A stretch of DNA of 64,000 nt. It comes from an uncultured Gammaproteobacteria bacterium. Lineage in GTDB: Bacteria > Patescibacteriota > Patescibacteriia > SG8-24. Where the stretch lies: contig CAZAOV010000001.1 in the NCBI GenBank assembly GCA_964486995.1, positions 15,697 to 79,696 of the forward strand, written 5' to 3'. Made by a program: the position numbers and the translations under genes. This document shows, in pieces, positions 3,287 to 59,468 of the stretch. Each line of letters starts with the position of its first letter. Position 1 is the stretch's first letter. The notes under the pieces are model-generated. The model did no database searches and had not been told where the DNA came from. It saw nothing but the letters and a program-made list of their open reading frames with translations.

Positions 3287-4243
3287 CTATTTTTTACCCG
3301 CAATCATCTTAACTATAGCATTCAATTTTCTAATTGACTGATACCGCATGGCGTTCCGCTTAAAGTGTTGATATGCTTTTCTTCTCCATTGAACACTTAG
3401 CCTTGCGCGATTTAGATGGGTGGGACAGTTTGCTACTATAAGTTTATTGTATCTCCAGAGCATATATATATACAACAATCCAAAACAAGAATCGGTTTTT
3501 TCATGCACATAAACCAAGTGGCGAGTTGTGCGCGCATCTAGGTCGGATAGCACATTATTCAAATGTTCAATAAACACCTTTTTAGCATTGGCTTTTTGTG
3601 CGTTTCTGTGCTGCTGAGAAATACCACCAGGCGACAGCCTCCACTTAACATGAACTTCATCGAGCAACTCCATGCCAAACCGCAAAGAAAGTTTATTCCA
3701 CAATCCATAATCCTCAACGTATCTATGCGATTCATCATACCCACCTAAATTCATTACGACATCGCGCCTAAACATTACCGATGAATGCGTTAAAACATTA
3801 TTAAATATGAGCCAATAAAAAATTGATTCGCGAGTGGTCGCCAGCGAATGCGAAATACCCAGCGATTGACCCTTATCATCGATCACCTCAACTCGGCACC
3901 CGATTAACGCGATATCAGGATGCTTATCTAGATAACTAACCTGCTGCACGAGACGCTCCGGCAAACTAATATCGTCCGCATCCATTCGCGCAACATATTC
4001 CCCCACTGCCTCCTTCAAACCTTTGTTCAGGGACTTAGTGAGGCCGAGATTGGTTTCGTTCTTCAGTACCCGAATCCGCGGATCTGGGTACGAAGAAATA
4101 ATTTCCGGCGTCGAGTCGGTCGAGGCGTCGTCAATTATCATAAGCTCAAAATCGCGGAAGGTCTGGTTGAGAATGCTCTCCATCGCCGCCCGCAGATACT
4201 TCTCCCCATTGTAGACGGCCATCAGGACCGTTACTTTCGGCAT
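3287..4243 (-). CDS. Family 2 glycosyltransferase (GT2)
   Basis: VTVLMAVYNGEKYLRAAMESILNQTFRDFELMIIDDASTDSTPEII...RMDADD. Confidence 0.85.
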   Translation of the reverse strand: MPKVTVLMAVYNGEKYLRAAMESILNQTFRDFELMIIDDASTDSTPEIISSYPDPRIRVLKNETNLGLTKSLNKGLKEAVGEYVARMDADDISLPERLVQQVSYLDKHPDIALIGCRVEVIDDKGQSLGISHSLATTRESIFYWLIFNNVLTHSSVMFRRDVVMNLGGYDESHRYVEDYGLWNKLSLRFGMELLDEVHVKWRLSPGGISQQHRNAQKANAKKVFIEHLNNVLSDLDARTTRHLVYVHEKTDSCFGLLYIYMLWRYNKLIVANCPTHLNRARLSVQWRRKAYQHFKRNAMRYQSIRKLNAIVKMIAGKK

Positions 4244-4265
4244 ATAGAAAGCTGATAATTATTTT

Positions 4266-5150
4266 TTAAAGCTGATACCATTCCTTTGGTATTAAATTAC
4301 CGATATCTTTTTCAACTCTATTAAACCACTTCTTCGGCGCAATGACGATCTTATCTGAATTCCTGTTCAACCACGCCCCCCACCAGGAAAAACTGCTGTT
4401 GGCGATGATGTTGTGTTTGCAGTAGGACATCAGCATCAGCTCCTCATAGTCCTTGAGCTTGCCGTCCGAGACATAAGTCACAGGGTGATCAATCTTCAAA
4501 TTCTCTTTGACCCACTCGATGTCGTCCGAAAAAATAAATAAGTGCGGATTTTCTACTTTGCTGGTTACAAATTTCATTGCTGCTTCGTAGTAAGAAAGGG
4601 AGCAAGTGCCGTGATATTCGTTCGTTCTTTTATCGCTGACGTAATCGCCGCGCCGCACGTGCAAAGATATCGCATTGCAACTTATTATTTCTTGAGTGAT
4701 TGCGCGCCCTTCAATGCTATATTCATCTTTCAATGTGAATTCTTCCCGAATTATTTCTTCGGTGTCCTTAAAATATTTTTCACTCTGCCAATAGCCGCTC
4801 AAATATATTCCACGCTCACCAATTGCCGGAGGCATACGATAACCACTTGTGCCTTCACTGACAACACTATCGTCAAACAATCCAAGCCTTCGAAGCAGAA
4901 AACCCTGTAATCGCTTACCGAATCTTGTTCGTCCCTTCCTTTGCAAACGATTAATTTCTGCCTTGGTGGCCATCTCAATTGAAATATTAAAAACCCCCAG
5001 CCCAAAATGGCGTTTAGTATTATTTTTTGAATCATCTAAGCCAGACAAATCGAGTTTCAATCGCTGACCACTAATCTCCGCCAAAAAACGTCCATATGCA
5101 TACTGAAACATTTGGTTACCTAATCCTCCGATTATTCTGGTTACTATCAT
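4266..5150 (-). CDS. GT11 alpha-1,2-fucosyltransferase
   Basis: N-terminal IIGGLGNQMFQYAYGRFLA, then HVRRGDY, then C-terminal NIIANSSFSWWGAWLN: hallmark motifs of bacterial alpha-1,2-fucosyltransferases. Confidence 0.8.
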   Translation of the reverse strand: MIVTRIIGGLGNQMFQYAYGRFLAEISGQRLKLDLSGLDDSKNNTKRHFGLGVFNISIEMATKAEINRLQRKGRTRFGKRLQGFLLRRLGLFDDSVVSEGTSGYRMPPAIGERGIYLSGYWQSEKYFKDTEEIIREEFTLKDEYSIEGRAITQEIISCNAISLHVRRGDYVSDKRTNEYHGTCSLSYYEAAMKFVTSKVENPHLFIFSDDIEWVKENLKIDHPVTYVSDGKLKDYEELMLMSYCKHNIIANSSFSWWGAWLNRNSDKIVIAPKKWFNRVEKDIGNLIPKEWYQL

Positions 5151-46211: not shown

Positions 46212-48200
46212 TTGTCTATGCAAACCAATACCATGCGTCACTCATATCAAATCATTGCGGCTGCAGCAGTAGTCGTGCTTATGTTCTTCTGGATGCCGAA
46301 CGCATATGCGCAGGTACCGGAATTTACCGATGAGCCATTTGACGCAACTGGCCTGTGCGTCGATGAGGGCTATGAAAGATACGAGACGCCCATCGAGTGC
46401 GAAGAGCGGTGCGATAATTGTGTCTTGGACGAAGACCAATGCTGGAGCTGTCAGAGTCAGCCCGAACCGGAAACAACGCCTGGTCTCTGGAAACGGTTCA
46501 CCAACTGGGTCGGCAGTTTTTTCAGCAGGGTCGTACAGTTCATTACCGGCAACGCACCGACCGAAGAACCGGATCCGAACCGTTCTGAACTAAACATTGC
46601 CTGGCGCACGGCTTCTGCGGCAGGCAAGAGCGTGCTCGGCTATCATCGCGGCGAGGGTCGCGGCAATGAAGAAGCCATAAACCAGCAAATCAAAGATGCC
46701 CTTGCTAATGCCGACTCCATACCGGACTTGCTGAAACTGCGCACTATTTTCATGATCTATTGTCAGGACAAGCACAACCAAAATTACAAATCCCAAGCCG
46801 CCTGCATGAATGATTTTATGGATGAATTTCGTAAGCGCGGCGATGTCCTAAAGGAACGGCTGTTGGCACAAATCGATTCCAGTGACGGCAGTGCCAAAAC
46901 GTACAAGAGGATTGTTGGCCTGCGCTCAATCCTAATGGCCGGCACGAACGCGAGCGGCGAGGGGTATTGGTTTTCGACCGACAATATCAAGAAGGTCATG
47001 GAAGCGTTGAAGGGCAAGATGAAGGAGTGGCTACAGGCAGCGCTAGTGCACAACGCTTCGCTCGAGAACATCCATACTTGGTATTACTTTGCCCAAGCTT
47101 ACACTAAGGCTGTCGTAAAGGAAGGCGACTCACCCGGCTCCGGCCTCATGGAAGGGTCTAATCCTTCGTTGTTGGTGCGGTATCGAGCGCGACGACTGGC
47201 CCTGCAAGAAATGATTAAGATCGACATCTGCAATCCCGACCCGGAGAAGCTCAAGAAGTTCCAGGAGCTGTTGAGCCAGCCGCCCGGCTGCAGAAAAATT
47301 CTCGGCAGTACGGTTGCCTGCGCTGATATAATGTCCGGCAAGCTTGAAGCGGCGTACGCTTATCTCTACGACATGGACGAAGGAGACGAAGCCAACGACA
47401 TGCCGCAGAACAAGGCGTCGGAACCGATTAAATGCGATAAGCAAAGCACAACGACCACCGCTGATACTTCCGACGATGAGCCCTTAGCCGTTCCAACCCC
47501 GCCGACCGAGGAGAGCGGTGATGATGTCGGCGCTTACGAGAGAGAGACACAAGCAACTGACTCGGACGGTAACCCGACACAAGGTGACCCACCGCCGGTC
47601 GGCGCCGACACGGAGGAAGGCACCGAACATACCGGGGCGGATTCAGGTGCTGCCTCCGGCAATCCCGAACCCGATTCAACCGAACCGCCCGGCGACACGG
47701 AATCCGACTCGACCCCCGCTTCCGGCGATTCCACCGATTCGACAGATGAACCAACCGAACCAAACGAGACCGATGACCCGACAGTCGAGCCGAACGGTAC
47801 GGGCACGCCTGACCCCTGCGAACTGCCTGAAAACCTTGATTCGCCCGAATGCATTACGGCCGGCGAACCGAACCCGGAGGAACCAACCGCGACTCCAGTC
47901 GTTCCGCCAGACCCAGAAGAACCCTACTCCATGTGCGATGTCGTCATAATCTCTGACCCGATCGTCGGCTGGGACTTCTATACCCAAGACTGCAATGCCG
48001 CCCGAGAAGACGTGATATTCGCCTTCACTTCATGTGGCTGGCAACCCCCTCTGGTCGTGGCCGACGATTCCGGCCCGGAAATCATGTGCTACGAAACGGC
48101 CGGCGGATTCATAGATTATCAATCTATAATTCCGTGCCATCCGATCCCCTGGCCAGACGAGCCCGTCGTTCAGTGTGTCGAGGAACACCTGATGATGTAA
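46212..48200 (+). CDS. Secreted Cys-rich protein with a long acidic Pro/Thr/Asp/Glu-rich low-complexity segment
   Basis: Signal peptide (AAVVVLMFFWMPNAYA); Cys clusters at both ends; a DSTEP/DSTD-type low-complexity stretch at 47500..47900. Confidence 0.5.
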   Translation: MSMQTNTMRHSYQIIAAAAVVVLMFFWMPNAYAQVPEFTDEPFDATGLCVDEGYERYETPIECEERCDNCVLDEDQCWSCQSQPEPETTPGLWKRFTNWVGSFFSRVVQFITGNAPTEEPDPNRSELNIAWRTASAAGKSVLGYHRGEGRGNEEAINQQIKDALANADSIPDLLKLRTIFMIYCQDKHNQNYKSQAACMNDFMDEFRKRGDVLKERLLAQIDSSDGSAKTYKRIVGLRSILMAGTNASGEGYWFSTDNIKKVMEALKGKMKEWLQAALVHNASLENIHTWYYFAQAYTKAVVKEGDSPGSGLMEGSNPSLLVRYRARRLALQEMIKIDICNPDPEKLKKFQELLSQPPGCRKILGSTVACADIMSGKLEAAYAYLYDMDEGDEANDMPQNKASEPIKCDKQSTTTTADTSDDEPLAVPTPPTEESGDDVGAYERETQATDSDGNPTQGDPPPVGADTEEGTEHTGADSGAASGNPEPDSTEPPGDTESDSTPASGDSTDSTDEPTEPNETDDPTVEPNGTGTPDPCELPENLDSPECITAGEPNPEEPTATPVVPPDPEEPYSMCDVVIISDPIVGWDFYTQDCNAAREDVIFAFTSCGWQPPLVVADDSGPEIMCYETAGGFIDYQSIIPCHPIPWPDEPVVQCVEEHLMM

Positions 48201-49250: not shown

Positions 49251-52200
49251 TCAGACTCTCACCTCGAACAAACCGTTCGGTACTTTGCCGCCACCGGCAT
49301 CAGTATAGACAAACGGACTGCGCGAGCCCCCACCGCGAAGTGTGACCACATCGCTTAATTTGTCAGAAACAGTCTCATCCTTGGAATGTGCGTTCACGCC
49401 CATTTTTTGCGCTTTTTTCTGCACAAAATTACCCATGGCTTCTTTTATCTTCGGATGCGAATTGCTGCTGTAAACGCGTTCCATAAACAGCGCCGGTTCG
49501 CCAGCGTCGTTTTCCAACATACGCACCACGGCTCGCGCCAAGATGTTCTTGTCCTCATCGTACATTTGAATAATCTTCACGCCCGGGTCGCTCAAATATG
49601 ACATCAACCCGACGTTCATCCCCATGGAACTTTTATAGCTCTGGCATGACGGCACCGGTTTCTCGCCAATCAACGCATGCACTGACACATCAACCTCGTC
49701 GGTCAAGATCAGCTTGGACTTAGAAATCCGTTCACCGCCAAACATGCTTTGATGCGCATTATGCAACAAATGTTCGATGCGTTCCAAATCCTGCGCAAAG
49801 TCAGGATTCTCGTCGTCGAATACGTCATGCATATCGCGGAAAACAACATCGAGCGGCAGGCGTTTCTTTTTGTCGTCAAACGCCAGTGATTTTGTTTCCA
49901 CGCCCTCCAGAGAGATGCGTCGCAACCTCGCGAGGTAAATCTGCGCCCGAGTTCTCTTGATTTCCGGGTTGTTCCCCGCCAGGTGTTCATTCACTTTTTG
50001 CTGCAATTCGTGGAACTCCGCTTTCTCTTCTTCCGGAACATCTTCGTATTTCAACCCTTTCTTCCTGGCCTTCTTTACGGCTTTGAAACGCGCTTTAAGC
50101 TCCTTTTGTCGCGCGGTCCACTCTTTGATTGGCTCGGTCAGGCGCTCGTATTTGGCTTTTAGAACTTCGTCATCGGGCGGAATTTCGTTCACATCAATAT
50201 GATGATCGGCCATCGCCTGAGACAGAATGTCGCGCACGCTGCTATGAACATCCTTGATGTCATAGCCGAGTGCCTCATCAAAACCAGCTTCATCATGTTC
50301 GAGCCAGGCACGATACTGTTCGGCCGACAGCTCGGTCGGCAACAACCCTTCTTGCCTGAGCCGATTCAATCGGCCCTCAGCCTGCTGTTCGTTCTCCGGC
50401 GATCCGCCCTCGCCCCACGCCCGCCAATCCTCATAGTCACCGGCCACCACATGTTCAATGAACTGCCTGAACGCATCTTCCATGTCGGCCCGTTTCCGAC
50501 AGGTTTGCCGATAATAAATCGACAATGCCGCAATCGCCTCACCGGTCAGGCCCTCAAACCGCACCTCGTTCTCCGACTTCAGCTCGAAAATATTCTGCAT
50601 GTGTTCGCTGATACGACCCATGAGTTTGTCGCGCAACTCTGACCAATCACCCTGCGCCAAATCATATTCTAAACCTTCATCCAGCTGATTATGCGCCACA
50701 AACTCCAGCATCTCTACCGCCTCCTTGCGCTGAGCCGATGACAAAGCAAATATCGCCGGAGCATTATCCTTAGCAAGCGGCATGACATCTAATATCGCCA
50801 CGCGATTCATCATATCCATGAATTGCTCGGGCGGATAAGCCTCTGACGGTTTCAACTGCTTGCCCTTTCGCTGCTGCTGAACCTTGGCAATGACCTCCAG
50901 CTCTTTGCGGTGCAGTTCATAGAACGCTTTACCCGATGCTATTTCCAGCATGGCATCATAATAGTCCTGTTCCAGCTCATCGGCCTGCTCGATGTGGTGA
51001 TAGGGATTTATTTCCGCCAGCTTATTTGTCACCTCGGCCGACAAATTAAGTTTGTGATAATACTGCCCGTATCGATTACCGGAAAACGCCACGCTCCGCG
51101 CTCTGGCCAAATAAAGTTTTTCTAATTCCTCATCTGGAACTTGTTCTCTGATATCCCTAAATTCCCGACTGGTATCAGTGAGCACCGCCGGATTCACCAC
51201 CGCATATTCAGCGATGTTCTCGCGCATCAAATCCTGCATTTCTAAATCATCCATGCCGGCGACACCTGCCTCGAAGACATAAAATTTATTCGCCTGACTC
51301 TCTTCGGTTATGGAATCACGCACCTCGTCAATCCATCGCAGACGTTTGCGCTCATGCTGCTCGGACAGCGACTCCTCGAGGCGCTCTTTTTTAATATCAT
51401 CAATTTTCTGCAGTGCCGCGCGCAAGTCATCCCGTAGTGTCTTTTTTTCGCTCATGGATACCAACTTGCTTTTCAGGCGGTCACGCAAGTATCTCACATT
51501 CTGCTCCTGTCTTTTTAGCCCCTCCTGCCACCATTCGAGGTGATTCTTGAAATCACTTTCCACCCCATGCAACTGCCTTAGCAGCTTTCCGTAGTAACGA
51601 GTTTGACCAGTTTCCGCCAGCCGTTCCATGAACTGCCGTCGCAGTCCAGGCAGCGCAATCATCTCTCTCATTATGCTTTCACTATCTAAAAAATCTTCGA
51701 TATCGACAGACCGAATTCGCTCTAACATGAGTCCGATGGTTTCTCGAGCTCCGATTAGCTCAATAACGGCTCTCAGTTTGTAAGCCAGGTCTGTTGCCGC
51801 CTCGAAAGCGCCGGGCTGTTCCAGCAAGACTCGTTTTATTTGTTCCTGATAGGGTTTAGCCGCTTCGCTCCCGATGAAATACTCAATAAAATTTAAATCA
51901 ACGGGAATCGTCAGCTGCCGCTCAAAAAAATCTTCTCGCTCCTGTTTGCTGTACACCTTTTTGAATGCCAAGCTGCCAAACAGGTGAGGCGACGCCTCGA
52001 TTGTCCGCCTAGCGGTGACCTGCAGGGTGTCACTGCTGATATCGAAAGTTTCACCGGATTTTTCTTTCTGACGCAGTTGCTTTGTCAGGCGCGGATAGTG
52101 TTCAAGAAAATATGACGCGTCTTTTTGCATTTCCTCAACCAGCCGGTCAGCCGGAACAATATCGTGTTGAAGCGCATATTCGATGTTATACATCCATAGC

Positions 52201-53528
52201 GCCGGCTGATGCTTGGTGATTTGCCGCACCAGCCACTGCTGTTTGTCCGGCGACAGCACCGGCAACACCGAATCAATCTCCAGAATCAATTCACGTGCCA
52301 AATACGAACTCTGGCCCTCTTCAATTATGTGTCGGATGTGATGATCCAGAACTAGCTTTTCTAAATCAGGCGCGCCCTTGCGCTGGCGATTGAATTCGGC
52401 GATGCGTTGCAAATCCGTAAACCGATTCGAATTTAAGTAGCAACCTGAATTTCGATACAACTTTTTCATTAGTTCGGCTGCCTGTTGCTTGTCTGCACAC
52501 AACTCATCGATGTGATTCATCACCGGCACGCCGGATTCCACCATCTCGATGAACAGATCATCCTTATCGTTGAGATAATTTTCGTATAATTTGTAATTCT
52601 TCAGTATCGCCTCGGCGCGACGTTCGTTAGCGATATCTTTAAGTTTAGCCAGTCTTCGTGCCAGTGAGCGGCTGGCAACGGCGGATTGGTGTACCCATCT
52701 CACGTCGTCTTTTTTTACCCCCTCTCGCCTGACCAGCTCGTCCATCACGTCTTTTTCTTCGGCCTGATCTTCGTCGGTCAGAAAAAATTCGCCCCGAGAA
52801 TAAACCAGCCCATGGGAACTGGTCTGCCCAAGCATTTTTTCTAACATCTTGTCGGTAACCAAATCCGCTTCCTGCAATTTATCTAAATATTGCAGTACCA
52901 CGGTCGGCATGGTTTCTAGCGTTGCGATCATCAGCTCTTTCGCGTCATGGGCTTCGGGGTGCTGCCGACTGTATTCGGTCATTACGTCAATCAACTCTTC
53001 TATACGGTCGTAACTGTTAAAGTGCGCTTCGCGCAGGGAATGGCTTTCTTCCTTGCCGTTCACTTCGACGGAAACGTGATGCTGATGCAGGTTGGTAAAC
53101 GGCACCACCATGAGCGCATGCTCGGAATCATTTTCGCGAAACTCCTGCAAAAAATCTTTTCGAACCGCAATCGGAATATCATACCAGCACTCATGAAAAG
53201 TACGCACTGCTGTGCCCGGTTCTATGAGCCGACCGAGGTAAACGCCCAGATCAGCCTTCTGCTCCAAATTCATCGCCCTGACCTTGTCGAGCAGTTCCTC
53301 ATCCCCGACCATGTTTTTGGCCAGCAGACCTTCAACGATCTGCAGCTGCTGACTCTCGTCGAACTGGTCGAACGAATTCTCGAACAGATCAAAAAGCGCG
53401 GCCATATCCTGCTCGGATGCCTGCCGCACGTCTAGCGCTCCGCCTTCACTTAACCTAGCCCAAACCTCCTGAGAGTCGGGCTTCCTGTCTATTTTATGCT
53501 CTGGTTTGTAGCCGCCTTCTCCTAGCAT
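49251..53528 (-). CDS. Giant (1425 aa) acidic, predicted mostly alpha-helical protein of unknown function
   Basis: An uninterrupted 4.3 kb ORF. No catalytic motif, TM helix or signal peptide recognised. Co-directional with, and 71 bp upstream of, the exonuclease gene. Confidence 0.6.
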   Translation of the reverse strand: MLGEGGYKPEHKIDRKPDSQEVWARLSEGGALDVRQASEQDMAALFDLFENSFDQFDESQQLQIVEGLLAKNMVGDEELLDKVRAMNLEQKADLGVYLGRLIEPGTAVRTFHECWYDIPIAVRKDFLQEFRENDSEHALMVVPFTNLHQHHVSVEVNGKEESHSLREAHFNSYDRIEELIDVMTEYSRQHPEAHDAKELMIATLETMPTVVLQYLDKLQEADLVTDKMLEKMLGQTSSHGLVYSRGEFFLTDEDQAEEKDVMDELVRREGVKKDDVRWVHQSAVASRSLARRLAKLKDIANERRAEAILKNYKLYENYLNDKDDLFIEMVESGVPVMNHIDELCADKQQAAELMKKLYRNSGCYLNSNRFTDLQRIAEFNRQRKGAPDLEKLVLDHHIRHIIEEGQSSYLARELILEIDSVLPVLSPDKQQWLVRQITKHQPALWMYNIEYALQHDIVPADRLVEEMQKDASYFLEHYPRLTKQLRQKEKSGETFDISSDTLQVTARRTIEASPHLFGSLAFKKVYSKQEREDFFERQLTIPVDLNFIEYFIGSEAAKPYQEQIKRVLLEQPGAFEAATDLAYKLRAVIELIGARETIGLMLERIRSVDIEDFLDSESIMREMIALPGLRRQFMERLAETGQTRYYGKLLRQLHGVESDFKNHLEWWQEGLKRQEQNVRYLRDRLKSKLVSMSEKKTLRDDLRAALQKIDDIKKERLEESLSEQHERKRLRWIDEVRDSITEESQANKFYVFEAGVAGMDDLEMQDLMRENIAEYAVVNPAVLTDTSREFRDIREQVPDEELEKLYLARARSVAFSGNRYGQYYHKLNLSAEVTNKLAEINPYHHIEQADELEQDYYDAMLEIASGKAFYELHRKELEVIAKVQQQRKGKQLKPSEAYPPEQFMDMMNRVAILDVMPLAKDNAPAIFALSSAQRKEAVEMLEFVAHNQLDEGLEYDLAQGDWSELRDKLMGRISEHMQNIFELKSENEVRFEGLTGEAIAALSIYYRQTCRKRADMEDAFRQFIEHVVAGDYEDWRAWGEGGSPENEQQAEGRLNRLRQEGLLPTELSAEQYRAWLEHDEAGFDEALGYDIKDVHSSVRDILSQAMADHHIDVNEIPPDDEVLKAKYERLTEPIKEWTARQKELKARFKAVKKARKKGLKYEDVPEEEKAEFHELQQKVNEHLAGNNPEIKRTRAQIYLARLRRISLEGVETKSLAFDDKKKRLPLDVVFRDMHDVFDDENPDFAQDLERIEHLLHNAHQSMFGGERISKSKLILTDEVDVSVHALIGEKPVPSCQSYKSSMGMNVGLMSYLSDPGVKIIQMYDEDKNILARAVVRMLENDAGEPALFMERVYSSNSHPKIKEAMGNFVQKKAQKMGVNAHSKDETVSDKLSDVVTLRGGGSRSPFVYTDAGGGKVPNGLFEVRV

Positions 53529-54165: not shown

Positions 54166-54619
54166 TTAGAAGATTCAGAAAGCTACGCATTAAGTATCTG
54201 GTCACCATCTACCCACCCAGGAACAACCGCCAGGATGTATTCCCGGACGACGAGGATTGCCTTCTCCTTCCGCAACATTTTAGCTTCCACGGCGGACGAG
54301 CGCAATTTCTTTTGCCACGCGGACTGCCTGATAGGCAACCACTAACACCTCGAGGCGGCGGGGACGAGTCAATCTCCGCCGCCGTACTCGAATACACGGG
54401 TACGAGCAGAGCGAGGCGGCTGACCGGCCGGGGCTGCAACATTCCCGAATCGGCCAGATTATCAAAAAGATGGGGGGGGCGTAACGCTAAAGATTAAAGA
54501 CACGGTCCCTAAATACCTAATCCTGTTTTAACATATCAAAAACGTCCGACTCAGCGTCGGACGTTTTTGGCAGGGGCTCGTGGACTATGTTAGAACCCTT
54601 GCGATGGAGGTGTAGGGCA

Positions 54620-54997
54620 TTAGTTTCCCGAAGTACCGTCGATACCGTCGGAACCGTCGCATTGACCGATTTGTGCTGCATGTTCTAGCTCCCTCTCGAG
54701 CTTTCGCGAGTTTCCGTGCTTCAGCATGCCCATATAGGAATTCAGTGCGGGCAAACTCGCACCACCGACAACCGACCTAAGCATCCTTCTTTTCGTTACG
54801 GTGCGCAGCACGCGATGGTCGGGGAAATGCACCCATCCGAGAAAGTCGATACCGGACGACAGCGTCTTGATGCACACCTTGTTCGGATGAAGTTCGAGCC
54901 GAAGATCTTCTCGCAACTTTATTTCAATCACCGGCAGGTGGTAGGTGCAGGTGTACGTGCAGTGGCTCTGGATCCTGTACAATCGTGCGTTCGACAC
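54620..54997 (-). pseudogene. Reverse transcriptase C-terminal fragment (thumb-region homology only): remnant of a retroelement
   Basis: LREDLRLELHPNKVCIKTLSSGIDFLGWVHFPDHRVLRTV matches the RT motif-7/thumb consensus (L..LgL.ln.eKT.i....g.dFLGy.v). No finger/palm motifs (no YxDD) upstream. Has its own RBS aaaggagg plus a GTG start. Confidence 0.45.
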
Positions 54998-55104
54998 TGT
55001 TATCACCTCCTTTCGCTGGGGGTGATTTCAGTTAACTGACCAACTCGCTACGCGTCAAACGCACACACCAGCTAAAGCTGGTGGTTTATTATCTGAATGG
55101 AAAA

Positions 55105-55132
55105 CGCCCCGCGCAAAGAATGCGCGGGGCGT
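55105..55132 (-). terminator. Rho-independent terminator for the 55176..55730 gene
   Basis: cgccccgcgcaaagaatgcgcggggcg, preceded by aaaa on the plus strand. Confidence 0.55.
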
Positions 55133-55175
55133 TGCCGAAGGGCTAAGAGCTAAGGCTCTAAGAAGGACAGAGGAA

Positions 55176-55730
55176 TCAAGTGCTGCTTGCTCGAACCGCC
55201 GCCGGGTAGTCCGAGTACCAGTCGTTGTCGAGCCAGTGGTAACTCCAGTCCCACCAGCCGCCGACCCAGTAGAGAGAGCGGACGCACAGAGTGCCGTCAG
55301 GGCGGCGGTAGATGGTACCCCAGAAGTACACCGCCTTACCCTTCCACCCCTCGGGAATGAGGTGCGGATGGACCAGCAGGTGGTCCAGCACGTTGGCGTT
55401 CAGGGCCGGCTCGTCGGCGATGATACTGCGAAGGCCATCACCTTTGACCCAACCGGCCTTCTGCTTCTCGGAAACGAAGAGGTCGATTCCGACCTTTGAA
55501 AGATCGAGGGAGCCGCCCTCGCGATGTTCGACGACCTCCCACCTGTCGGGGCAGAACGGCGCGGCATCGCAGTCGACTAGATGGTTCGAAAGGCAGATCG
55601 ACGCGACCATTCGGTCGATAATCTTAGTATCGGCGAGCATCGCCTCGCCTTGCTCTGGCGTGATTCTCTCCGCGATCTTGCCCATAAGGGCGTTATACTT
55701 ACCAGCTTTCCAGTCAAATAGGTTGGCCAT
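55176..55730 (-). CDS. Hypothetical protein with a Trp/Tyr/Asp-rich C-terminus
   Basis: 184 aa; C-terminal ...LYWVGGWWDWSYHWLDNDWYSDYPAAV; no family recognised. Confidence 0.45.
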   Translation of the reverse strand: MANLFDWKAGKYNALMGKIAERITPEQGEAMLADTKIIDRMVASICLSNHLVDCDAAPFCPDRWEVVEHREGGSLDLSKVGIDLFVSEKQKAGWVKGDGLRSIIADEPALNANVLDHLLVHPHLIPEGWKGKAVYFWGTIYRRPDGTLCVRSLYWVGGWWDWSYHWLDNDWYSDYPAAVRASST

Positions 55731-56022
55731 GGGTTACCCCATCCTTTCCTTGCCGTCGGTTCACGCGCACGGACGACCATCGTCCACAGGCGTTATCCCA
55801 TTGTACAAAACGGCGGTGCGAGGTCGAACGATCAACCACGCACAGCCATTTTCAACATGCACGAATTGGCAGGTACGACACTGAAATATAGCATTTTTTG
55901 CTGTTTTTGTCAACCTCAATACAGATGGACCACAAGTTATGCTTCTGCCGCCTTCAAAACAAAAAATTACTCTACATTAAGCGGAATTTTTTGGCAGGGG
56001 CTCGTGGACTATGCTAGAAACC

Positions 56023-56625
56023 TCAACGCACACTACTGAAGCTTCTATATACTAATTCGGACATCGCCTCGTGTTTGCCAGACATTCCATCAATGCAGGC
56101 CCTTAGGTAGTCTGGTTCGTCCCAATCGACCTCCGGCAGCCCCAAGCTTGCTACCAGCAAATCAAGGAACAGTCGAATCGTTCGTCCGTTCCCTTCACGG
56201 AACGGATGTACTGCATTGAACTCGTTATGTATGAAGGCAATCTTGTTGGCAATTTCCTTCTCACTGTCTTTTTCCGTCGGAAGGCTGCCTTCTAGAGCCT
56301 GACTTAAAGTATCCATTGAATCCCGCAAATGCGCGACCGGCGCAAATAACATGTCGTCTTTAGATATATCGACACGCCGCAATTCACCAGCCCAGTCATA
56401 CAACGGACCCAAAAAATACTCGTGAATAGAAAAAAGTAGCGCAACATTGAATGCCACATTTCCCTGCTGCAGCAGGCCGAAGAAATGCTCGTATGCGTCC
56501 GCCAACAGAATGGTCTCCGCATCCTCCAGCGACTGCTGATCCGTGATGCCAAGCCTGTTTTTCAGCACTCCGTTCACCAGACCTGCATCCTCATCACTGA
56601 CGTTATATCGAGAATGCTCGGCCAT
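56023..56625 (-). CDS. Fic/Doc-family (Fido) protein, putative AMPylating toxin
   Basis: Canonical Fic motif HPFREGNGRTIRLFL (HPFx[DE]GNGR). Confidence 0.8.
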   Translation of the reverse strand: MAEHSRYNVSDEDAGLVNGVLKNRLGITDQQSLEDAETILLADAYEHFFGLLQQGNVAFNVALLFSIHEYFLGPLYDWAGELRRVDISKDDMLFAPVAHLRDSMDTLSQALEGSLPTEKDSEKEIANKIAFIHNEFNAVHPFREGNGRTIRLFLDLLVASLGLPEVDWDEPDYLRACIDGMSGKHEAMSELVYRSFSSVR

Positions 56626-56752
56626 TTCCCTTCAGTTTCTTAATAATGGTCGCATTCTTTTTTGCTCGCGAAAGACTCATGCCCTCGATTTTTGATGAGC
56701 GTGCTACCGCTTGCCGCAGATCATTCATGGTGGCTTTCTTTCGTTTTGCCAT
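56603..56752 (-). CDS. Putative small antitoxin carrying the Fic inhibitory helix motif (VbhA-like, class I Fic TA)
   Basis: A 49-aa ORF not in the ORF track (MAKRKKATMNDLRQAVARSSKIEGMSLSRAKKNATIIKKLKGNGRAFSI). It contains S-S-K-I-E-G, i.e. [ST]xxxE[GN], and overlaps the Fic start by 23 nt in another frame. Confidence 0.5.
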   Translation of the reverse strand: MAKRKKATMNDLRQAVARSSKIEGMSLSRAKKNATIIKKLKGNGRAFSI

Positions 56753-56801
56753 ATCGCTTTATACTGTAATTATGGTTATATTTTAGCAAAAATTTAGCAA
56801 C

Positions 56802-57290
56802 TTAGCAACTCCTTATCTTTCGTATAGTTGGCCAAAAAAGGAAGTGGCAATTGCTTTCACTTACATCTAGAAATCTCACCCATTCAACTGACTTAACCTC
56901 TCCGTCAATGACTGATTTTGGCGTACCCTCTTTACCTTCAACAATTTCCACTTGATGCATCATGGCAACGACATGATAAAACCTGTCGTCTTTTTCTATG
57001 TGCAAATATCTTTCTGCTAAATCGTAAAATTCAGATGATTTAACCTTGTATCCAGTCTCCTCTAGAACCTCTCGATGAAGAGCCTCTTTAACGCTTTCGC
57101 CCATATCCATCCCACCACCAGGAAACGCGTACAAACCATGATGGGGCCTGACCATCAAGATTGAGTCATCTCGGATAATCACGGCATAAACCGTCGGTCG
57201 CCAAAAAATTTCTACGTCGGCCGGGATTTCTTTTTCAATCCCTTGATTGTCATCAAAATAATTCATACTCATGCATCCTATCACACCCAA
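56802..57290 (-). CDS. NUDIX hydrolase
   Basis: Nudix box FPGGGMDMGESVKEALHREVLEETG. Confidence 0.75.
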   Translation of the reverse strand: MGVIGCMSMNYFDDNQGIEKEIPADVEIFWRPTVYAVIIRDDSILMVRPHHGLYAFPGGGMDMGESVKEALHREVLEETGYKVKSSEFYDLAERYLHIEKDDRFYHVVAMMHQVEIVEGKEGTPKSVIDGEVKSVEWVRFLDVSESNCHFLFWPTIRKIRSC

Positions 57291-57351
57291 GCTTTAATTG
57301 ATTACTATTAAAGCAATCAAAAATCCCCTGCTAAAATTAGCAGAGGATTTT

Positions 57352-57425
57352 TGGCAGGGGCGGCAGGGATCGAACCCGCAATAAAGGTTTTGGAGACCCT
57401 TGTGATACCATTTCACCACGCCCCT
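57352..57425 (-). tRNA. tRNA-Trp (CCA), 3'-CCA encoded
   Basis: Folded manually: acceptor AGGGGCG/CGCCCCT, anticodon loop CTCCAAA, T-loop TTCGATC. Confidence 0.85.
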
Positions 57426-57689
57426 ATGAATTGCGTTTGGATGTTACCTTAGGATTTGGGGTTGTGCAAGGCTATTCGAGCGGCCTATCTGCTGAACTGA
57501 ATCCTTACCGCAATTCGAAGTCCGGGGTCAGTACGACGGGTTGATTGAGTGTCTGGTGCGTTTATGTGGATTTTTGCCTCCGCAGGAATGACATGAGGAG
57601 GACGAGAAAATCAAGCAAGAAGATCGTTGCCGAACAATCAAGCACGTGACGCTTAAACGGCGGTTGCCCGCCGTTTTTTCGCTTGATTG

Positions 57690-57845
57690 CTACTTAGTTT
57701 CCTTGTGCAGCACGTGCTTCTTGCACCACTTGCAAAACTTTTTCATCTCCAAGCGGTCTTTCAGCGTTTTCTTGTTCTTGTGGGAGAAGTAGTTGATGCG
57801 CTTGCATCCAGTACACTCCAACTTCATCAAATTATCTTGAGACAT
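57690..57845 (-). CDS. rpmG: 50S ribosomal protein L33
   Basis: A 51-aa ORF below the ORF-track cutoff ([51 protein letters not shown]). It has the CxxC...CxxC zinc-ribbon pattern of L33 and lies between tRNA-Thr and tRNA-Trp. Confidence 0.8.
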
Positions 57846-57930
57846 ATTCTTTGCTGTTCATTACGGCAACGACCTTAGCCGATTTCCGTCATTTTGTCCA
57901 GTCCCGAGACTAAGCTCGGCGTACTATTTC

Positions 57931-58007
57931 TGGAGCCACCTCGCGGATTCGAACCGCGGACCTACTGTTTACAAAACAGTTGCTCTGACCAGCTGAGCTA
58001 AGGTGGC
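57931..58007 (-). tRNA. tRNA-Thr (TGT), 3'-CCA encoded
   Basis: Manual fold: acceptor GCCACCT/AGGTGGC, anticodon loop TTTGTAA, T-loop TTCGAAT. Confidence 0.85.
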
Positions 58008-58056
58008 GCAATCTTCACGAAGGCTTCGTGGTGACTGGCGACGCCAGCTGAAGCCT

Positions 58057-58141
58057 TGGTGAAGGCTGGTGGGCAGGGCTGGATTCGAACCAGCGAAGGC
58101 GTAGCCAGCAGATTTACAGTCTGCCCCGTTTGACCGCTTCG
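58057..58141 (-). tRNA. tRNA-Tyr (GTA), long variable arm, 3'-CCA encoded
   Basis: Manual fold: acceptor GGGTAGG/CCTGCCC, anticodon loop CTGTAAA, variable arm about 18 nt. Confidence 0.8.
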
Positions 58142-58409
58142 GTACCTACCCGTGATTTTACAATTTGCTTTAAATGACTTTCCGCCCTTGGGCGATTTTA
58201 TCTTCAACTCTCGCTTTCGCACGTCAGTTTTATCTAGATGTTCTTCAGCATATACCAGCGTCCATGGTCGATATGCTTTAGTTGATCTGACACACCCGGA
58301 ATTACGCTATCGCAATCTCTTTTTTAATGTCAGCGGTGTAACCAATATGATACCGACCTCGTGCCTTACTGGATAGTATATAGACAAAATATCGCATAAC
58401 GAATCTAGA

Positions 58410-58485
58410 TGGAGCCGACGATCGGACTTGAACCGATGACCTACTCCTTACCATGGAGTTGCTCTACCAGCTGAGCTACGTCGGC
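58410..58485 (-). tRNA. tRNA-Thr (GGT), 3'-CCA encoded
   Basis: Manual fold: acceptor GCCGACG/CGTCGGC, anticodon loop ATGGTAA, T-loop TTCAAGT. Confidence 0.85.
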
Positions 58486-58553
58486 ACGTAAGTGCTATTC
58501 GTCTATGCGATATAGTATTTTTTATTCGATATTTCTTGAATTGTCAATCTGCG

Positions 58554-59468
58554 TCAAACGAGAACTTGCTCCGCCGCATCTTCTTCCTCTTCCACTGAAA
58601 TCTCGTCAATTCGCTTCTGCAGGGAATCCAGCTTTTTATTTTCGGGATTAGCGGTCCGCAAGCGCTCCAAACTTCCCATAGCCCTTTCCTTATCGCCCTC
58701 TATTATACACGCTTCCACCAAAGAATCAAGATGTCGTGGATTTGCCGGCTCGAAAGATACCGCATACTCTAATCCCACCCTAGCTGAAACAAAATCTTCG
58801 ACCTCAGAGCAGGCTTCAGCAAAGTTAGCATATTGCTTTGCAATGTCCGTATGAGCCGCCTTACCGGCTGGACAGCTGTCGGCAAACGCCTCGAATCGCG
58901 GCACCGGTACGCCCTTAAGCTCGGATACCGCTTGCTTGCAATATTTCTTCACCAGCAGCTTCACCAAAAACGCATAGATATCACGCGCCCGATCCCAGCG
59001 CTTTATTTCCAAATACAGATTCCCCAAATCGCGATACACGTCCTCGTTCATCTCGTCCAGCGCCACCACCTCAATCAGCTTTTTTTCCGCTTCGCCGTAC
59101 TTCTCCGCTTGTATCAACTTAGTGGCGTCCTCGCGCAGCCTATCGGCCTGACTGATTTTTTTATTCTCAGGCAGTATTTTTTCATTACGAAATTGCCGAT
59201 CAATGGTGAGCAATTTTTTTACCTGTCGCCGAAAAGCATCACGAACCTTAACTCCAAGAGGTGTCAAAAAAGATAAAATTCCGCCCGACCATTTTTTCGC
59301 CGCACGGCGTACTCGTTCGTCCATGATCTGTCGCTTGCGTGCCAGGTCACGCTCCTTGGGGATCACTTCGGTGTTAATCAAAATCAACTGCGGAAACTTG
59401 CTTCCGATGATTGCCGCAATCGTCACTAGGCAGGCAATGATAATTCCTAGGCAGACGAAATAAAACAT
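58554..59468 (-). CDS. Membrane-anchored TPR-like repeat protein, hypothetical
   Basis: N-terminal TM (FVCLGIIIACLVTIAAIIG), then a helical repeat region with TPR-like YxxLGxxY/AxxxF spacing. Confidence 0.45.
   Translation of the reverse strand: MFYFVCLGIIIACLVTIAAIIGSKFPQLILINTEVIPKERDLARKRQIMDERVRRAAKKWSGGILSFLTPLGVKVRDAFRRQVKKLLTIDRQFRNEKILPENKKISQADRLREDATKLIQAEKYGEAEKKLIEVVALDEMNEDVYRDLGNLYLEIKRWDRARDIYAFLVKLLVKKYCKQAVSELKGVPVPRFEAFADSCPAGKAAHTDIAKQYANFAEACSEVEDFVSARVGLEYAVSFEPANPRHLDSLVEACIIEGDKERAMGSLERLRTANPENKKLDSLQKRIDEISVEEEEDAAEQVLV

Follow-up and report, generated by a model that had tools for sequence, protein, structure and literature searches.

A probable class I Fic toxin-antitoxin module with a 49-residue antitoxin in a tRNA-Trp islet of a Patescibacteria genome

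Here, we describe a locus in a 64,000-nucleotide stretch of contig CAZAOV010000001.1 (assembly GCA_964486995.1, positions 15,697 to 79,696 of the forward strand; hereafter the window) from a member of the Patescibacteria, and conclude that its two genes very probably form a class I Fic toxin-antitoxin module of the FicTA type. The toxin gene ficT (56023..56625) encodes a 200-aa class I Fic protein consisting of the FIC domain only, and the 49-aa antitoxin gene ficA (56603..56752, stop codon included; MAKRKKATMNDLRQAVARSSKIEGMSLSRAKKNATIIKKLKGNGRAFSI) lies directly upstream; coordinates are positions within the window, and all genes of the locus are on the minus strand. An initial annotation had read this pair as a class I FicTA module, and our results support that reading: the Fic protein is VbhT-like, the upstream open reading frame (ORF) is conserved and translated and carries the [S/T]xxxE[G/N] motif, and its family is similar, at the level of sequence profiles, to VbhA-type antitoxins. 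The coordinates of the small ORF, its SSKIEG motif and its 23-nt overlap with ficT were confirmed exactly as that annotation had given them. The module is carried on an islet of 1.4 kb that has integrated at the 3' end of a tRNA-Trp gene, and its family is large and spread through the Patescibacteria (candidate phyla radiation, CPR).

The small gene upstream of ficT

Is the short upstream ORF a real gene? We compared the region upstream of Fic in 80 FicT-related loci taken from reference genomes, 56 of which form a close clade with Fic proteins 41-58% identical. Conservation of the pair in other genomes had been set beforehand as a test of the initial annotation, and the pair was indeed found to be conserved: a motif-bearing ORF ending at or over the Fic start occurs in ~70 of the 80 loci, and in the close clade the small ORF is present upstream of Fic in 56/56 loci, with the canonical motif in 55. 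A ficA start was callable in 54 of the close loci; the copy in L025 is truncated by the contig end, and that in L042 has SSKIEK. The background of [ST]xxxE[GN] in 40-80-aa stop-to-stop segments of the 80 loci is 3.7% with the true copies included and ~1.8% without them. Because the ORF and its motif are conserved together upstream of Fic across loci, SSKIEG is raised far above chance.

The inhibitory-helix motif S19-S-K-I-E23-G24 (56681..56698) occupies residues 19-24 of ficA. Its S19, E23 and G24 are invariant (48/48 and 47/47 family members), as are A30 and L40, and the family consensus reads KAVxxSSKxEGLSxxRAKKNxxxIKxLKxYGRAFS. Variant motifs were seen in a few upstream ORFs, namely SWRMEQ, with Gln for G/N, in the Neisseria loci L057, L060 and L072, and SSKIEK in the Saccharibacteria locus L042; in these variants the Glu is retained and the last position drifts.

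The pattern of substitutions points to translation. Compared with its copy in the closest relative (L081, Fic 78% identical), ficA has 21 changed codons, 14 of them synonymous and 7 nonsynonymous, and the nucleotide differences number 4/2/17 at codon positions 1/2/3. In the non-overlapping part of ficA, the mean pairwise differences among 53 loci were 0.36/0.30/0.61 for the same three positions. The roughly twofold greater variability of third positions shows that ficA is translated and under purifying selection. The dual-coding overlap of 23 nt (56603..56625), which encodes the C-terminus (G)RAFSI and the stop codon of ficA in one frame and the N-terminus MAEHSRY(N) of ficT in the other, shows mean pairwise differences of 0.33/0.08/0.29 in the 53 loci, i.e. 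all three codon positions are constrained in it. Among 54 close loci the overlap measures 23 nt in 40 and 35 nt in 10, with two loci each at 29 nt and 8 nt. Over the family loci L001-L064 the overlap is highly conserved, reading GRAFS[ILV] plus stop in one frame and MxEHSRY in the other. Judged by its sequence evolution, ficA is a real, conserved and translated gene. A non-coding reading, in which the ORF would be a conserved leader, a regulatory RNA or the Fic promoter region and the motif a coincidence, could appeal to the missing public gene calls, to the failure of the small ORF to find any match when searched alone and to its lack of a Shine-Dalgarno sequence, but it is effectively refuted by the third-position variability and further opposed by the synonymous nature of 14 of the 21 codons changed in L081, by a frame that is open in 56/56 loci despite 40-60% protein divergence with S, E and G invariant, by the 128 homologs called as proteins elsewhere and by the absence of any Rfam match in the ficA region, so that we give it practically no weight.

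As the initial annotation had noted, ficA is unannotated: neither the public gene calls for the identical contig (L082) nor those for L081 include it. A single-sequence search of a 5.8-billion-protein database with the ficA product returned no match, and a family profile was needed. The profile search found 128 called public homologs, all of them labelled 'hypothetical' and devoid of Pfam domains, and an exhaustive search with the family profile gave 42 representative clusters. No intact FicA-Fic fusion was among the results of this exhaustive search, only decayed frameshift fusions. P0268, P0262 and P0274, from other metagenomes, are pseudogenised modules of this kind, in which a frameshift in the overlap has joined FicA to a Fic sequence that is truncated or garbled. 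P0261 (1306 aa, 10 matched stretches) was rejected as a family member, being a leucine-rich-repeat protein with spurious matches. Our analysis thus corrects an annotation gap, that of a small antitoxin family without a Pfam model for which only ~128 public protein clusters are called whereas the partner Fic proteins number more than 1,000, and the 'hypothetical' members of the family can be labelled FicA-like throughout the Patescibacteria.

A promoter-like site (56780..56808; TTGCTA, a 17-nt spacer, TAAAAT, and a TG before the -10 box that makes it an extended -10) precedes the ficA start codon by 27 nt. Homology to L081 sets in exactly at 56809, runs through Fic to 56062 and resumes just past the Fic stop, while the flanking genes differ; it is restricted to promoter, ficA and ficT, plus the element past the Fic stop. 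An extended -10 sequence (TGnTAnnnT) precedes the small ORF in 38/55 loci, compared with 6.7% of random windows from the same loci, and a Shine-Dalgarno sequence precedes it in 1/55. The distance from the end of the -10 box to the ATG is ~6 nt in several loci, which suggests short-leader or leaderless ficA transcripts. Three direct TTGCTAA copies (gagTTGCTAAgTTGCTAAattttTGCTAAAAT) lie over the -35 and -10 boxes at 56780-56812 (minus strand), two of which are kept in L081; they could be candidate operator half-sites for autoregulation.

The Fic protein and the relation of FicA to known antitoxins

FicT matches the Pfam Fic model above threshold (expectation value, E, 2.3e-16). Its best NCBIfam models are VbhT and Fic, and because both scores fall under the equivalog cut-offs, FicT is to be regarded as a relative of these models and not as an ortholog. 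The best sequence match in the PDB is VbhT (E 2e-23, ~33% identity), with which FicT aligns almost end to end over the FIC domain, leaving no spare N- or C-terminal segment; Fic-1 (8wt0_A) is the fourth-best match by sequence (E 1.7e-18) and ranks 17th by fold. An AlphaFold2 (AF2) model built with 24 homologs reached a predicted local distance difference test score (pLDDT) of 88 and a predicted template modelling score (pTM) of 0.86. Its top Foldseek match was again VbhT (3shg_A, template modelling score, TM, 0.77, 33% identity), followed by the FIC domains of Bartonella Bep proteins, EcFicT (TM 0.71) and Fic-1. These matches are class I Fic proteins or derivatives of them, several of which were solved with their antitoxins.

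The initial annotation had placed a Fic protein with a canonical motif at 56023..56625, and the protein is indeed there, is VbhT-like and has the complete motif: H140-P-F-R-E-G-N-G-R148-T-I-R151 (HPFREGNGRTIR; 56173..56208) occupies residues 140-151. Across the 24-sequence FicT alignment H140, P141, F142, R143, G145, N146, G147, R148, T149 and R151 are invariant. From this invariance it follows that the catalytic His and the ATP- and antitoxin-binding arginines R1 (R148) and R2 (R151) are kept, and on these residues FicT, retaining R1 (R148), should be AMPylation-competent. At the start of ficT, Fic M1, R6 and Y7 are invariant, and so is R143, the 'R0' of the motif. In enterobacterial class I Fic proteins, conservation of R0 accompanies an N-terminal Tyr 'lock' (PMC5033356), and an equivalent of this lock may, by analogy, be present in the Fic family described here.

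An inhibitory helix within the Fic protein itself would have placed it in class II or III and, as the initial annotation had stated, would have spoken against the pair. The only [S/T]xxxE[G/N] match inside FicT is SQALEG at residues 108-113, in the middle of the domain and at neither terminus. We rejected this class II/III-like signal as a chance match: it occurs in only 1/24 family members, for which reason FicT is not assigned to class II or III. No conserved internal inhibitory motif was found among the 24 members.

How does FicA relate to the known antitoxins? We checked the VbhA query sequence against PDB chains and built a comparison profile from VbhA and 13 upstream ORFs of distant Fic genes, to be set against a FicA-family profile of 48 members. 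The profile-profile comparison (hhalign) aligned the two with 91.6% probability and an E of 8e-7 over 26 columns; the register is centred on S-x-x-x-E-G, and SSKIEG is aligned with SQRLEG of VbhA. The VbhA-type comparison profile retrieves from the PDB VbhA, BiaA (two entries), AntF and YhfG, which are all the solved FicA-type antitoxins. A single-sequence AF2 model of FicA, of moderate confidence (pLDDT 78), has a helix at residues 9-20, a turn with K-I-E-G and a second helix at residues 27-43. The predicted fold of FicA is thus helix-turn-helix, and the motif spans the end of helix 1 and the following turn. Taken together, the alignments suggest that FicA probably shares the inhibitory helix with known FicA proteins and not the C-terminal half.

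Weak Pfam matches lead in the same direction. FicA itself scores 18.8 bits (E 0.0021) against DUF4172 (PF13776), for which the cutoff is 25, and among the 48 FicA members DUF4172 is matched by 3/48 and YhfG (PF10832) by 2/48, at an E of 0.002 at best. The only recurrent weak Pfam matches with an evident link to Fic regulation are these two, DUF4172 being an N-terminal region of Fic proteins and YhfG the antitoxin of E. coli. We take DUF4172 to be the part of class II Fic proteins that holds the inhibitory helix. Since the matches to YhfG and DUF4172 are sub-threshold and the public homologs are without Pfam domains, the FicA family is covered by no Pfam model.

Among the characterised systems, VbhT-VbhA of Bartonella schoenbuchensis (PDB 3SHG, 3ZC7, 3ZCB) is the best match of FicT by both sequence and fold. 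Both toxins have the canonical HPFxEGNGRxxR motif, and in both systems the gene immediately upstream of the toxin gene, on its strand, is a small one whose helical product contains S-x-x-x-E-G; the two helices align by profile. However, VbhT is plasmid-borne and has a C-terminal BID secretion domain (PMC5675462), whereas FicT consists of the FIC domain only; FicA, unlike VbhA, is a 49-aa protein of two predicted helices with an unrelated basic C-terminal half, and the 23-nt dual-coding overlap is a feature of the present clade. Fic-1-AntF of Pseudomonas (PDB 8WT0) and YeFicTA, PaFicTA and BtrFicTA share with our pair the combination of a FIC-only toxin of ~200 aa and a small upstream antitoxin. 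AntF belongs to the YhfG/DUF2559 family, which the antitoxins of our family match in 2/48 members and there sub-threshold, and the hosts of this group are Proteobacteria, while ours are Patescibacteria. EcFicT-EcFicA (Fic-YhfG) of E. coli (PDB 5JFF) has the same class I architecture and fold and a small upstream antitoxin with an inhibitory Glu; the motif of EcFicT, however, is degenerate, with Leu in place of R1, and the protein is thought not to bind ATP and has no known target (PMC5033356), whereas FicT keeps R148. The class II and III proteins (SoFic, NmFic, EfFic, FICD) share the FIC fold and the inhibitory principle, but carry the inhibitory helix within the Fic polypeptide, at the N-terminus in class II and at the C-terminus in class III, whereas here it belongs to a separate gene product.

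The pair is a straightforward member of a well-described system, with a FicA subfamily specific to its clade, and it leaves the understanding of Fic toxin regulation unchanged. Its FicT homologs number more than 1,000 and come mostly from metagenome-assembled genomes of Patescibacteria/CPR. FicTA modules, so far studied mainly in Proteobacteria, are thus common in CPR bacteria with very small genomes; the literature that we searched yielded no paper linking FicTA with CPR or Patescibacteria.

Proposed mechanism and alternative roles

We propose the following mechanism, in which the expression of the pair is read from the sequence and the action of its products from the known class I systems. 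The promoter-like site upstream of ficA probably drives a bicistronic transcript, and because ficT starts 23 nt before the end of ficA, the two genes are probably translationally coupled. As in VbhTA, EcFicTA and Fic-1-AntF, FicA, with two helices of which the first ends in S-x-x-x-E-G, would wrap around FicT. Glu23 of FicA and R151, which is the second arginine of the FIC motif, are both present and invariant; they would pair, and this pairing would force ATP into a non-productive orientation and keep the enzyme off; the class definition and the Glu-R2 salt bridge have been described previously (PMC5033356). Free FicT would, like VbhT, BtrFicT and Fic-1, AMPylate GyrB/ParE, and growth would stop. 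FicT toxins have been reported to AMPylate gyrase and topoisomerase IV (PMC5675462), and GyrB/ParE are the reported targets of the Fic-1-AntF, YeFicTA, PaFicTA and BtrFicTA toxins (PMC5675462, PMC13327609). The FicT-FicA complex may in addition deAMPylate the target, as has been found for a related complex. A toxin that likely targets gyrase/topoisomerase IV and resides on a tRNA-linked islet may, in such small genomes, matter for genome stability, dormancy or phage defence.

Several points weigh against this assignment. A lone motif in one short ORF is weak evidence, given a background of ~2-4%. The initial annotation had proposed aligning the small ORF to VbhA; this alignment succeeds between profiles, as described above, but not between the single sequences, for which BLASTP gave a misaligned match that is not significant (E 0.17). 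FicA has no match in the PDB, either by sequence or by family profile, and its Pfam matches are all under the gathering thresholds. Its similarity to known FicA proteins is limited to the ~26 columns around the motif, and its C-terminal half (RAKKNxxIIKxLKxxGRAFS) is basic and specific to this clade. No Shine-Dalgarno sequence precedes ficA. Toxicity, neutralisation and AMPylation are what we infer from the relatives, and the contact between Glu23 and R151 is likewise drawn by analogy. The weakest step is the target: because FicT is only ~33% identical to VbhT its target could differ, and we see roughly even odds for GyrB/ParE.

The same biochemistry could serve another biological role, and this possibility overlaps with the FicTA module that we favour. 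The pair might be an anti-phage abortive-infection system, in which FicA restrains FicT until an infecting phage removes or titrates the antitoxin, whereupon FicT AMPylates a protein of the host or of the phage and the infection is aborted. Among the candidate defence families of PADLOC, FicT indeed matches PDC-S04 along its entire length (E 7.7e-48), and the NUDIX protein next to it matches PDC-S07 (E 1.7e-10). The next islet holds an RT-like (reverse transcriptase-like) fragment, the module itself is part of a small mobile islet, and SoFic-type Fic proteins have been reported to defend by abortive infection (PMC12249575). PDC-S04 and PDC-S07 are, however, candidate families only, and our literature search found no paper centred on PDC-S04, only passing mentions. 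The SoFic match of FicT is weak and partial (E 2.2e-11 in PADLOC, 2e-05 in NCBIfam), and SoFic, at ~360 aa, has another architecture and another regulator (PMC12249575). The pair is flanked by no phage genes or recognised defence systems, and at the tRNA-Trp site of a second genome (L083) the Fic protein is as diverged as its housekeeping neighbours, which is compatible with long vertical residence. On balance we consider a defence role unlikely, though it is the best placed of the alternatives.

Somewhat less likely still is that the pair acts as a reversible regulatory enzyme and not as poison and antidote. In this reading the stable FicT-FicA complex would be the physiological form and would tune gyrase or another target, acting mainly as a deAMPylase or AMPylation switch in which Glu23 of FicA catalyses the removal of AMP. 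The Fic-1-AntF complex has been shown to deAMPylate GyrB, Glu28 of AntF being essential (PMC13327609), and Fic-1 is among the closest solved relatives of FicT by sequence; Glu23 of FicA is invariant. In two genomes the pair occupies one and the same chromosomal site and has diverged like housekeeping genes, which is reminiscent of EcFicTA with its vertical inheritance (PMC5033356). Yet in the closest relative, L081, the module has another genomic context, decayed frameshifted copies exist (P0268, P0262, P0274), and the family is found beside various tRNA genes, which speaks for a mobile element that can be dispensed with.

The tRNA-Trp islets and their neighbourhood

On the minus strand, the genes run in the order aminoacyl-tRNA synthetase, peptidase M16, TIM, TPR protein, tRNA-Thr, tRNA-Tyr, tRNA-Thr, L33 and tRNA-Trp, and then NUDIX, ficA, ficT, a 184-aa ORF and the RT-like fragment. 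The first islet is bounded on one side by tRNA-Trp (CCA) (57352..57425), which forms an attL-like boundary. At the other end, a degenerate copy of the tRNA-Trp 3' end (...GTCCACGAGCCCCTGCCA; 55982..56023) begins with the last base of the ficT TGA, at 56023. This 42-nt element corresponds to the T-arm and the acceptor 3' end of tRNA-Trp (...GCCCCTGCCA) and is followed by an A-run and a hairpin (55960..55993); copy and hairpin together likely are a terminator and an attR-like islet boundary. A second copy of the 42-nt element is found at 54558..54599, 1,424 nt beyond the first. In the window GCCCCTGCCA occurs 3 times, always on the minus strand, against 0.11 expected. From these direct repeats of the tRNA-Trp 3' end we therefore deduce two tandem islets of ~1.4 kb; repeats of this kind are what integration at a tRNA gene usually leaves behind. 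Neither islet contains a visible integrase. The initial annotation had suggested an island next to tRNA-Trp, and this is supported: NUDIX, ficA and ficT lie between tRNA-Trp and the degenerate copy of its 3' end, which is in direct orientation.

The tRNA-Trp-like element after the Fic stop is conserved in L081 (94%) and in L083 (90%), above the Fic gene itself. In the second genome (L083/L084) the conserved flank is the same, and ficA-ficT follows directly after tRNA-Trp and is succeeded by the same scar, without NUDIX. The identities at L083 are 56% for Fic, 46% for M16, 59% for TIM, 32% for TPR and 84% for L33. Because Fic is here as diverged as the housekeeping neighbours, the module has either long resided at the tRNA-Trp site or entered it more than once. 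Other members of the family are found shortly after a tRNA-Met, tRNA-Asn or tmRNA (transfer-messenger RNA) gene.

Could the module be a mobile cassette in its own right? In such a cassette, lacking an integrase and consisting of promoter, ficA, ficT and a tRNA-3'-end-like terminator, the terminator would serve as the recombination site for a recombinase acting in trans, and the pair might then be a reversible gyrase AMPylation/deAMPylation switch and not a simple poison. This idea builds on the 90-94% conservation of the terminal element, on its presence at the tRNA-less locus L081 as well and on the tandem scars beside tRNA-Trp. We regard it as improbable; if it were true, FicTA cassettes would accumulate at the tRNA genes of CPR genomes. 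At L081, a second, larger Fic gene (3712-4647, minus strand, 311 aa) lies ~1.4 kb from the FicTA pair, and there are two tRNA-Trp-like scars, which suggests that this locus is a local cluster of mobile cassettes.

The NUDIX hydrolase gene (56802..57290; Pfam NUDIX E 1.6e-19) shares the islet with the pair. We rejected it as a third, obligate component of the module, since it is absent beside the pair in L081 and L083. The second islet contains the 184-aa ORF (55176..55730), which has no family match and is preceded by a strong promoter-like site (55913..55885; TTGACA, 17 nt, TATATT), and the RT-like fragment, a 128-aa ORF (54620..55006; PADLOC RT_UG17, E 8e-4). The matches of the latter are weak and confined to the C-terminal part of reverse transcriptase, and it is probably a reverse transcriptase remnant. 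An intact diversity-generating retroelement, for which the RT-like fragment beside the 184-aa ORF had been considered, was rejected, as there is no pair of template and variable repeats. L081 has a 204-aa gene with a 3' end resembling that of the 184-aa ORF. Rfam families in 55000..58600 are limited to the four tRNAs. Farther away in the window, two very large ORFs, at 49251-53528 (minus strand, 1425 aa) and 46212-48200 (plus strand, 662 aa), are without a Pfam or PADLOC match.

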